Source: Octopus vulgaris (taxonomy: Eukaryota). Taken from it: a DNA stretch of 64,000 nt. The notes under the pieces are model-generated. The model was given only the letters and a program-made list of their open reading frames with translations, was not told the DNA's origin and did no database searches. Below, one piece after another: positions 912 through 26,615 of this stretch (within the stretch, counting starts at the first letter, position 1; each line of letters starts with the position of its first letter). The stretch covers positions 72,602,001 to 72,666,000 of the forward strand of contig OX597822.1 of assembly GCA_951406725.2 (NCBI GenBank). Reading direction: 5' to 3'. The position numbers and the translations under genes were made by a program.

Positions 912-1857
912 CTTGTTTGTATGTCCTGTACTCTACTTTTTCGTTGTTTAAAAAAATGTCCATTTTCTCGGTTTTGTGTTTATGTTTTCGTTTCTCATTG
1001 TGTTCGTCGTTTTTTTGGTGTCCTGTACCCATATATGCATGTATATATACATGTAGAGGTAGGTACGTACATATATGTATGTATAAATGCATGTTTTATT
1101 TATTTATTTATATATGACTGAACGCACGCATCCATTTCTAAGTAAGATTGTTCTTAATATTAATACTGATGCGCACTCTTAACCTTTCTCCCTCCCTCCC
1201 TTTCTCAGCCTTCATTCTTTTTCTTCTACCTTACTGTCTCTCCCTCTCTCTCTCTCATTCTTCATTCTTTTCTCTACCACCATCCCCGTTTTTTCTCTCC
1301 CTTTATCTTACTCCTCCTCCCCCCTCCCGTCGCGGTCACGTGATGAGATGCCTATTTCTGTCTTTTCTTCTCCAGCTTCCTCCAAGTAGGGACGGTAAAA
1401 TCTGTTGCTCTGCCGATCCCAAAGAATAGCGTTCGTAAAAAAAATTCTTATCTCGTTTGGCTTAATAGCCCTCCTTGTTTGTGTTACTGTTATTCTCCGT
1501 TGTCCTGTTTATATTTTGTACTGTCGTTACTGTCCTGTTTTTGTTACCAGTTCCCCCCCCCCGCAGAAAAATCTCAAATTTTATTTAATTTGATTTCCGC
1601 GGGAAGGAAAATTTCATTGAAGTCATGTATCGCCTGACCTTCGAAACGTGGAGTAGATGAAATTAAGGCGACTGAAGAAGGGGAATTTTCCTTGTTTTTA
1701 TGTCCTGTACTCTATTTTTTCGTTGTTTAAAAAATGTCCATTTCCTCGGTTTTGTGTTTATGTTTTCGTTTCTCATTGTGTTCGACGTTTTTTTGGTGTC
1801 CTGTACCCATATATGCATGCATGTATATATACATGTAGAGGTAGGTATGTACATATA
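912..1857 (+). mobile_element. Non-autonomous terminally redundant (Penelope/retrozyme-like) element, ~779-nt unit, in (TA)n
   Basis: ~165-bp direct repeat at 912-1075 and 1691-1857 (offset 779); non-coding pyrimidine-rich interior; hammerhead-core structure at 1549-1687; TA microsatellite on both sides. Confidence 0.75.
1549..1687 (+). ncRNA. Candidate permuted hammerhead ribozyme, copy A (predicted cleavage after GUA 1627-1629)
   Basis: GTA 1627-29, GAAA 1643-46, CTGAAGA 1672-78. Stem III catgt/acgtg, stem I tcgcct/aggcga, stem II gaagg/ccttc. Extra helices aatttcat/atgaaatt and agttcccc/ggggaatt; hairpin ccgc..gcgg (1561-1602). Confidence 0.7.
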
Positions 1858-2900
1858 TTATTATGTTATATATATATATATATATATATATATATATATA
1901 TGTGTGTGCATTTCAGAGATGGAGAAATGAACACATATATATATATATATATGTATATATAACTTTATTTATTGGCCACACAGGGCTGAACACAGAGGGG
2001 ACAAATAGATTAGTATAATGGGCGAATATTAATATTTTAAATGATACATATCTGAATGCTATTCCATCGTGTCAGCTGGAATATCTATGTCAATGGAAGC
2101 TATCTTTCAAAGTTATTGTTATTTACATATGCGGCATGAACATGTAGTGGATACAATGTTTCTGACAATAGACATACACGCGGGCGTGTTAAATATGTTT
2201 GACTCACTTAACATAGCTTATAATTTCGTCATGAAATGCACATATCCTATGACCCCAAGAAATTTAAACCATGACCAGCCGGGCGCCTTTTTTCGATTGC
2301 TTACACGTGAACGAAAGGGTGTGCTGAAATGCTTCTGGCTTGGGGTAAAATATAATACAAGAGTTAGTTATGATTTTATTGAACTTATTGTCCTCTCGGA
2401 TTTATACTTTTATTGCATCGGTCCTTCGGGGTTTTCTAAGCCCTACAAAAGAACTTGGTAGATTGGGCCTCCAAGCAGGTCTTTCACGATACCCTTAAAG
2501 TCATGAACTTTTCAGCATCCTCTCGTAGCCAGTTCTTTAGACAACACGACACTGATGACGGAGGTAAGACTGATGACGTAGGTAAAAAAATATAGTTCGT
2601 AAGAACTGCTTGATATACTCAAGCCAGCTTACAAAGTGGCTTGTAGCTGAGATCAGTTAGAAAATATTAGGATTTGATTCTGCAAGAACACGCAGACATG
2701 CACATACACGTACACTCGTGCTCAGGCATACCAACACCCTCATATTCAATCACACGAAGGTACGCGTACGCACCTATCTAATAAAACTGATATAATATTT
2801 AAATCATGGAAGAAAAGGAAAACAGAATAACCTCCTCAACAGATAAAACAGCAAACCAGTAGCTGAACTTCATATTTACACGTTCCAACGAAAATATGTA

Positions 2901-3330
2901 GGCGTAGGAGTGGCTGTGTGGTAAGTAGATTGCTTACGAACCACATGGTTCCGGATTTAGTCCCATTACGTGGCACCTTGGGCAGGTGTCTTCTACTGTA
3001 GCCTCGGGCCGACCAAAGCCTTGTGAGTGGACTAGGTAGACGGAAACTGAAAGAAGCCCGTCGTATATATATATATATATATATATATATATATATATAT
3101 ATGTGTGTGTATGTGTATATATATGTTTGTGTGTCCGCGTTTGTTCCCCCAACATCACTTGACAACTGATGCTGGTGTGTTTATGTCCCCGTAACTTAGT
3201 GATTCGGCAAAAGAGACCGATAGAATAAGTACTAGGTATACAAACAATAAGTGCTGGGGTCGATTTGCTCGACTAAAGGCGGTGCTCCAGCATGGCCACA
3301 GTCAAATGACTGAAACAAGTAAAAGAGTAA
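2901..3330 (+). mobile_element. tRNA-derived SINE (family 1, internal TA/TG microsatellite), full length
   Basis: A-box-like tggctgtgtggt and B-box-like head; tail ggcggtgctccagcatggcc..gaaacaagtaaaagag; about 10 related copies in the window. Confidence 0.85.
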
Positions 3331-25905: not shown

Positions 25906-26480
25906 ATGACCTTGGAAACGAATATGATTATTCATTCGAACAGCGAACGAAATGCAAACAACTTTGGATGCAAGCTGTGTTATAGAACCTTTGCAACTGT
26001 GAGAGGCTTGAAGATACATCAGGGAAAGACTTGTGAGAAGAGGACAGAGCAGTGTGGACAGATCGTAAAACACGTGGCAAATCATCCCCGGACTCAAACC
26101 CCAGCGGATCGATAAATGCTACAGCAGAGACCTCTTCACGTGATGAAACTACAAGTCTTGACACTGGTGCATCGGATAATACTCAGAGGAAACCGAGGGT
26201 TTTGTGGCCTGCTGCTACTGAGAAAGTGAAATATAAAGAGTTTGAAAACAAGGTTTGTCGGGCTCTTTATAAAATGACAGGCTCTACAGTGGAGAAACTG
26301 GGTAAATTATCAAACTCAATATACGATATAGGACACAGCGTGAGACGACTGTTTTTATCGATAGGCTTAACTCATCTTAAAGTCAATACCACCATGACTG
26401 ATATCCAATCTACAGTGGAGAAGGCTAGCCACTGGATTTGGTTAAAAAGAGACGATGAGCGATGGCTAGAAGTATATTGA
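25906..26480 (+). pseudogene. Remnant ORF of HERO/R2-like element (frameshift near 26055, large internal deletion)
   Basis: ORFs 25906-26115 and 26052-26480. Confidence 0.65.
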
Positions 26481-26503
26481 GTTCTTCATAACCAGCAGCT
26501 GAT

Positions 26504-26615
26504 CTAGCAAGCGGGGCCTCATATCAGTGAGGGGGGCCGGTGCGCATTGATGCCGTCGAGAGGTAGGCCCCGAAACGGCGCGCATTCTCTCCTGATGACC
26601 CCATACACTTGCTAG
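26504..26615 (+). ncRNA. Candidate permuted hammerhead ribozyme, copy C (predicted cleavage after GUC 26555-26557)
   Basis: GTC 26555-57, GAAA 26572-75, CTGATGA 26592-98. Stem III tgccgt/acggcg, stem I gagag/ctctc, stem II ggggcc/ggcccc. Extra helices gtgcg/cgcat and gggg/cccc plus ctagcaag/cttgctag; hairpin cctca/tgagg. Confidence 0.75.

Follow-up and report, generated by a model that had tools for sequence, protein, structure and literature searches.

The question raised by this 64,000-nt stretch of the Octopus vulgaris genome (contig OX597822.1; called the window below, at its whole length) is whether a hammerhead ribozyme can be built with its catalytic strand split in two, and what such a ribozyme would do for the retroelements that carry it. 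An initial annotation of the window had described three hammerhead-like motifs in three different elements, each with a non-circular, pseudoknotted strand order and with a helix (P4) and a hairpin inserted between core nucleotides A9 and G10.1, and had proposed a genome-wide descriptor search and a covariation analysis as checks. All three motifs were found, with their named helices, where it had placed them. A fourth, truncated copy had been missed, and the P4 register given for copy 1 (1549-1556) proved unique to that copy, its close relatives having a 5-bp P4 that abuts A9. The four motifs are:

1549..1687, + strand: split hammerhead copy 1; P4 1549-56/1680-87, hairpin 1561-1602, stem II 1603-07/1638-42, P5 1610-18/1656-64, stem III 1623-28/1646-51, N17 1629, stem I 1630-35/1666-71, CUGAAGA 1672-78.
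20311..20456, + strand: split hammerhead copy 2; P4 20311-25/20442-56, hairpin 20327-66, stem II 20367-71/20400-04, weak P5 20377-82/20421-26, stem III 20383-87/20408-12, N17 20388, stem I 20389-94/20427-32, CUGAUGA 20433-39.
26504..26615, + strand: split hammerhead copy 3, four-way junction with no unpaired base (0/0/0); P4 26513-16/26599-602 (extension 26504-11/26608-15), hairpin 26517-32, stem II 26533-38/26566-71, P5 26541-45/26580-84, stem III 26551-56/26575-80, N17 26557, stem I 26558-63/26586-91, CUGAUGA 26592-98.
19574..19679, + strand: fourth copy, 5'-truncated, with the motif of family 2 (see below); predicted cut after 19611, without the 5' strand of P4.

The hammerhead core, that is, CUGANGA, GAAA, NUH, the A15.1-U16.1 pair and the G10.1-C11.1 pair beside GAAA, was present in 4/4 window copies, three of which the annotation had so described. 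Stems III/I/II measured 6/6/5 bp in copy 1 (GUA, predicted cut after 1629), 5/6/5 bp in copy 2 (AUC, predicted cut after 20388) and 6/6/6 bp in copy 3 (GUC, predicted cut after 26557). The distance from N17 to C11.1 was 13-17 nt, with short linkers between stems I and II. P5 was weak in copy 2, with 6 bp including 2 G-U and two possible registers. A descriptor asking for the order site-GAAA-CUGANGA plus an upstream stem II matched the window at 1629, 19611, 20388 and 26557, four sites in all, and 200 dinucleotide-preserving shuffles of the window gave 2 bare cores and none with an upstream stem II; the descriptor was fitted to the window copies, and the shuffle rate is independent of that fit. 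A script covering all topologies called the same four sites split and found no other hammerhead in the window. As for covariance models, an e-value scan of the window with Rfam 15 was swamped by (TA)n matches; 150 of its 377 matches were listed, none of them a hammerhead. Eleven motif-bearing loci gave no hit at gathering level, in agreement with the earlier expectation that searches for types I-III would miss the motif.

How does this arrangement relate to known hammerheads? Eckert, Friedrich, Weinberg and Weinberg (2023, PMC10085705; for this and the other papers cited, statements refer to the parts of the source that were available) break the hammerhead down into three blocks, S, C and G, and describe non-circular orders SGC, CSG and GCS whose in vitro cleavage rates are 0.004-0.19 per min. 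In their type SGC, the linker between stems I and II is typically 3 nt and a helix named 'I' joins the far ends of these stems. The window motifs read S-G-C, not the cyclic S-C-G with nested three-way junction of types I, II and III, so the non-circular order claimed for them stands. Since the S-G-C order is already published and shown to cleave (PMC10085705), the reversed order itself is not new, and the novelty claimed for it falls. With type SGC, represented by HRIMA-1, the window form shares the block order, the full core, the short linker, the pseudoknotted core and the joining helix: P5 does connect stems I and II at their far ends, as had been noted under the name of a second junction, and it is the counterpart of the published 'I'.

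What sets the window form apart is block C. In type SGC the stem II strand directly follows CUGANGA, and the known alignments of Eckert et al., in their available part, hold no insertion of more than 1-2 nt between CUGANGA and its stems; the authors assumed that this block was uninterruptible (PMC10085705). In the split form the stem II strand lies at the 5' end and is reached via P4 and the hairpin. A stem II strand 0-2 nt from A9 was seen in 0/60 genome matches, the bases after A9 forming P4 instead. Type CSG, known from two metagenome sequences (PMC10085705), shares the cyclic order and, by eye, the P5 connectivity; it starts at the 3' strand of stem I with block C whole, whereas the split form starts inside block C. 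The split form can thus be derived from the SGC/CSG/GCS class by circular permutation, the opening being placed inside block C and a four-way junction providing the closure. Neither a split block C nor the presence of non-circular hammerheads in animal retrotransposons was described in the literature searched, from which most subscription papers were absent, so that a prior report is possible; it is to these two features, rather than to the order, that the claim of an unpublished topology now applies, and the second of them had not been identified in the annotation.

The insertion of P4 and the hairpin between A9 and G10.1 was supported by both the geometry of the junction and covariation. We assembled 27 non-redundant motifs (<75% identity), one of them the truncated window copy without P4, for which neither P4 nor the hairpin was a selection criterion. 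A strict 0/0/0 junction, with no unpaired base between A9 and P4, P4 and hairpin, or hairpin and G10.1, was found in 18/27 motifs, as compared with 43/702 cross-paired sequences and at most 2/27 at any of 10 shifted offsets. For covariation, 16 of 24 listed motifs derived from retrotransposons of the restriction-like endonuclease (RLE) type, those with similar length, were aligned blind with MAFFT. The well-paired column runs corresponded to P4, stem III, stem II, the hairpin and stem I, with three further runs outside the model; the P5 columns were placed by hand. Overall, 93% of 447 cells were paired (slid controls, 35-42%; 0/500 shuffles), the shuffle count not being a probability since the aligned sequences are related. 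Double-sided changes occurred in 25/28 pairs: P4 7/7, hairpin 4/4, stem I 3/3, stem II 4/5 (the fifth an invariant G-C), stem III 4/6 (the others invariant) and P5 3/3 aligned pairs, with one P5 column poorly paired. Stem II is likely to be stacked on the core, with P4 stacked on the hairpin.

Across the genome (~2.8 Gb searched), thousands of copies were found. The pattern CGAAAC-N22-24-CTGANGA gave 8,653 matches vs 429 for the reversed control; it leaves out other spacings (copy 3) and a U after GAAA (copy 2). A wide pattern gave 15,192 matches vs 4,078, but may take in type II hammerheads and chance matches, so the narrow count is preferred. Among the first 60 unselected CGAAAC-N16-42-CTGANGA matches listed, 26 had stems I and III, 25 of these an upstream stem II, 20 also P4 and the hairpin, and none a downstream stem II; the all-topology script, which is stricter, classed 22 of the 60 as split and assigned none to any other type. 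Another 20 genome matches, picked by hand, held 3 motifs. Forty arbitrary stretches of 10 kb (400 kb) contained no strict match and one doubtful relaxed match, a sampling too sparse for this density. As a control, viral contigs matching the same core pattern contained no split form among 125 loci listed, and the same script called 15 type II and 1 type I candidates among them. These type I/II viral candidates were at L386, L387, L419, L436, L460-L462, L470, L471, L497, L498 and L400, with four within L460. The canonical-order pattern CTGANGA-N8-34-CGAAAC had 36,422 genome matches vs 12,072 for its control, and several of the families involved have high copy numbers and short stem II hairpins; this excess indicates that the genome is rich in ordinary-order hammerheads too.

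Which elements carry the split form? Copy 3 belongs to family 3, which is presumably HERO-like:

25572..26679, + strand: family 3, internally deleted RLE-type retrotransposon without long terminal repeats (non-LTR); own 3' tail 25572-25657 before the 5' untranslated region (UTR), open reading frame (ORF) remnant 26037-26480.

The motif starts ~24 nt past the stop codon of the RLE-type ORF remnant. One relative, L212, has an open 1110-aa frame (RVT_1, E 8e-19), a single ORF with reverse transcriptase (RT), a CCHC knuckle and a C-terminal PD-(D/E)xK-type endonuclease, the latter two identified by eye. In 22/25 loci fetched by the 5' UTR of family 3 (L171-L195), the element's own 3' tail lay directly upstream of the 5' UTR, an arrangement resembling the pseudo-long terminal repeats (pLTRs) of Penelope elements. 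Four RNA runs cover the family 3 stretch, as contigs that carry no end or strand information. We then turned to RLE relatives from metagenomes chosen by protein alone, among which 36 loci had at least 200 nt of 3' flank. The motif was on the sense strand in 25/36, mostly 61-213 nt past the ORF end (723 and 1635 nt in two; two were counted from a match upstream of the ORF). No antisense motif was found in 79 RLE loci, nor any in five shuffles. When up to two core mismatches were allowed and N17 and the 15.1/16.1 pair were left free, 25/36 loci matched; of their 225 core positions 2 were mismatched, A15.1-U16.1 was present in 25/25, and none had G17. The core letters and the avoidance of G17 were kept across RT proteins of ~32-60% identity. 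In contigs L301, L318, L323, L345, L361 and L367 the motif was also seen upstream of the ORF.

The other window copies lie in two small tandem retroelements:

912..1902, + strand: family 1; 5' partial repeat 912-1116 matching 1691-1902, unit ~779 nt, (TA)n on both sides.
19574..20541, + strand: family 2; 19574-19764 matching 20351-20541, unit 777 nt, between (TA)n tracts.

A first look gave 1,841 genome candidates for family 1 and 2,847 for family 2, and family 2 arrays elsewhere reached up to 5 matches at a spacing of ~720-810 nt. Like non-LTR retrozymes, both families are non-coding tandem units with one ribozyme motif each; the motif is not the type I hammerhead that retrozymes carry. No RT ORF was tied to these units among the ORFs listed in 1.5-kb flanks, and a tblastn search of 130 family 1/2 loci with the ORF of a Penelope-like element of the window (described below) gave no match. 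Shortly after the start of both units (window ~1140 and ~19800) there is a splice-donor-like GTAAG, after which come a pyrimidine-rich tract and a TCACGTGA motif; by analogy with Penelope-like elements, GTAAG, the tract and TCACGTGA may represent a 5' UTR intron and promoter.

Two other ribozyme systems of retroelements invite comparison. The hepatitis delta virus (HDV)-like ribozymes of R2-type elements are of another class and lie at the 5' end, whereas the split hammerhead lies in the 3' UTR and, in tandem, also precedes the next 5' UTR; the two share the principle of a self-cleaving RNA that processes a non-LTR transcript (PMC13580325). The second system is the canonical type I hammerhead, carried by Penelope-like elements and by non-LTR retrozymes (PMC8557442; bioRxiv 10.64898/2026.07.22.740005, whose available part deals with type I models only). 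These hammerheads share with the split form the 3' UTR/pLTR location, tandem units, (TA)n targets and non-autonomous units of several hundred nt. Yet they form a circularly permuted three-way junction, whereas the split form is non-circular and occurs also in an RLE non-LTR clade.

A third home of the split form was seen, by eye, in Naiads. Craig et al. (2021, PMC8557442) reported Naiad elements without canonical hammerheads, marked eight of them 'HHR_half_core', and used this absence to suggest that hammerheads may only parasitise Penelope-like elements. They noted two core halves 35-50 nt apart and, in the available part, proposed no structure; the split form would supply one. A minority of the 54 Naiad records was read, by eye and not by script. 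The split fold was seen in Naiad_Ovul and Naiad_Esco (stem II degenerate), both bearing the 'HHR_half_core' label, in the record before Naiad_Ovul (short P4), in three Acropora records (13-bp stem III, joints of zero bases) and in the record that precedes Naiad_Dcar (Naiad_Plae by sheet order). By this reading, the split fold in Naiad 3' ends spans coral, acanthocephalan and cephalopod. A contiguous CSG was seen by eye in two Pristionchus-like records and in the records before Naiad_Hcon and Naiad_Lpol; such nematode records stand beside the only two CSG sequences of Eckert et al., both metagenomic. The split fold was not seen by eye in the whole records of Naiad_Omin, Naiad_Adux and Naiad-1_Skow. 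In the record before Naiad_Mley (ctenophore), a variant that is hard to classify, the order was S-G-C, the inserts were long and stem I had only 2 bp. In the octopus genome, a motif derived from Naiad_Ovul had 278 exact matches vs 0 for the control. The strict descriptor was passed by 5/15 Naiad-type loci fetched, and at these 15 loci no Naiad ORF was present within 1.5 kb.

On sequence grounds, we consider it likely that the motifs are self-cleaving hammerheads that belong to the non-circular (SGC/CSG/GCS) class but have their opening in a new position. Of the blocks, S and G would be intact, with P5 as the link between stems I and II, while C, interrupted at A9/G10.1, would be held by the four-way junction, the chain passing from A9 into P4, from the 5' strand of P4 through the hairpin, and on to G10.1. 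Cleavage after N17 is likely, given the conservation of the core and the activity of the SGC and CSG relatives. Cutting would reduce tandem or read-through transcripts to unit length, while some of the RNA would be re-ligated or remain uncut. Reverse transcription past the junction would yield partial tandem, pLTR-like insertions, and cut 3' products would yield copies starting just after the cut. For this role as a whole, from unit-length cutting and re-ligation to pLTR-like insertions and post-cut starts, we put the chances at about even. In line with such starts, 13/18 truncated copies in a mixed sample began at +1..+14 (14 of 99 visible nt; p 4e-8 under a uniform null); excluded from this sample were four copies whose flag arose only from divergence or an edge effect, together with every copy that had no relative.

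Several observations speak against this interpretation. In an independent family 2 sample (5'-most copy, first 60 clusters), 22 copies were truncated and 13 of these started after the cut, a weak excess (p 0.055). Ten of the 22 started between -3 and +10, a stretch that is AT-rich, so that microhomology with (TA)n targets confounds the peak. Moreover, 38/60 family 2 copies spanned the whole 111-nt view with the cut site intact, and 17/22 HERO-like upstream partial copies began before the cut; templates would thus often have escaped cutting or been re-ligated, in keeping with cleavage that is slow or regulated and with templates that are circular or tandem. Competing helices stronger than the active ones were predicted in copy 1 (1604-1615/1682-1693) and copy 3 (26512-26519/26565-26572), and such a helix dominated the predicted fold in 6/6 family 1 relatives. 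The program used cannot form pseudoknots, hence single-sequence folding misses the active fold; possibly, the competing helices sequester a stem II strand in an off-state. Partners were also less specific when scored against cross-pairs, only 5/27 for stem II, 12/27 for P5 and 14/27 for P4 exceeding the 95th cross percentile. The strict descriptor failed at 11/36 RLE loci, ~6 being degenerate and ~5 without a clear motif by eye. Lastly, as known alignments hold no insertion beyond 1-2 nt beside CUGANGA (PMC10085705, available part), the break at A9/G10.1 could impair catalysis.

Some of these observations would suit a fold that derives from a hammerhead but whose main function today is to let the RT recognise the 3' UTR, with cleavage very slow, protein-gated or absent. 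The fixed place near the 3' end, the intact cut site in most inserted copies and the strong alternative helices can all be read that way. The truncations clustering after the cut argue the other way, as do the catalytic core and the not-G17 rule, which hold across RTs as divergent as those above; likewise, Naiads, RLE elements and the small tandem units are unrelated and yet share the motif, which fits an activity independent of the protein. We therefore regard a mere recognition role as unlikely.

Less likely still is that the motif cleaves when dimeric, or in trans from one tandem unit to another, the one-molecule pseudoknot not being the active form. Minimal type I hammerheads of Penelope elements are reported to cleave in such a way. 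Tandem arrays are common here, and the short stem I-stem II linkers, borne out by the N17 to C11.1 distances, had led the initial annotation to suppose a sharp bend or a dimer. All stems are full length, though, many copies and Naiad ends hold a single motif, and a type SGC with a 3-nt linker cleaves in co-transcriptional assays (PMC10085705), so that a dimer need not be invoked.

Another view would take the motif for a plain contiguous type SGC whose stem II is made from the bases after CUGANGA, the upstream strand being incidental. The S-G-C order and the P5 helix would be the same, and two near-identical RLE loci, L350 and L357, did score a weak downstream stem II. The absence of a downstream stem II from all 60 genome matches, and the covariation of the bases after A9 with P4 and of the upstream strand with the 3' strand of stem II, make this very improbable. 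Finally, a chance match or an artefact of a descriptor written from the window copies, for which one might cite the empty 400 kb of arbitrary genome, is hardly credible in view of the shuffles, reversed-pattern controls, strand specificity and viral control, and was refuted by the sense-strand test at RLE loci, the junction test and covariation.

The window contains other repeats. A Penelope-like element at 15521-18070 (+) has an 849-aa frame with RT and a GIY-YIG-like domain, accompanied by an inverted foldback partial copy at 13044-15311; in its 3' UTR the script found no hammerhead in any order. A foldback element at 20564-21705 has CUGAUGA at 21465 (+) and 20917 (-), each followed by a small hairpin, with no matching GAAA; from its sequence it is possibly a decayed or variant ribozyme. 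An 18-nt tandem duplication at 2551-2585 has CUGAUGA in each unit. Long near-perfect inverted repeats, either foldback insertions or similar to miniature inverted-repeat transposable elements, lie at 33524-33989, 9406-9611, 51939-52128 and 15308-15542. A ~430-nt repeat resembling short interspersed elements, flanked by microsatellites and present in many copies, occurs at 2894-3330, 8510-8963, 22425-22940, 49436-49869, 61896-62410 and 62820-63275.

Put most broadly, the proposal is that of a seventh natural hammerhead topology, with a four-way junction in the catalytic strand, which would be the overlooked standard ribozyme of many Naiads, of HERO-like RLE elements and of small tandem derivatives. 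It would cut and re-close RNA, and an R2-type long interspersed element would make pLTR-like tandems from a circular or re-ligated template. We hold this full statement to be evenly poised between right and wrong. An interrupted CUGANGA block would break a published assumption (PMC10085705), and the two variable helices at A9/G10.1 would offer a natural insertion point for ribozyme switches. Ribozyme and pLTR-like tandems would be placed in an RLE lineage of long interspersed elements, and the apparent lack of hammerheads in Naiads, unlike other Penelope-like elements, would have a candidate answer. Non-circular hammerheads, known from rare metatranscriptome contigs, would number thousands of copies in a single animal genome and would extend to retrotransposons from several phyla.

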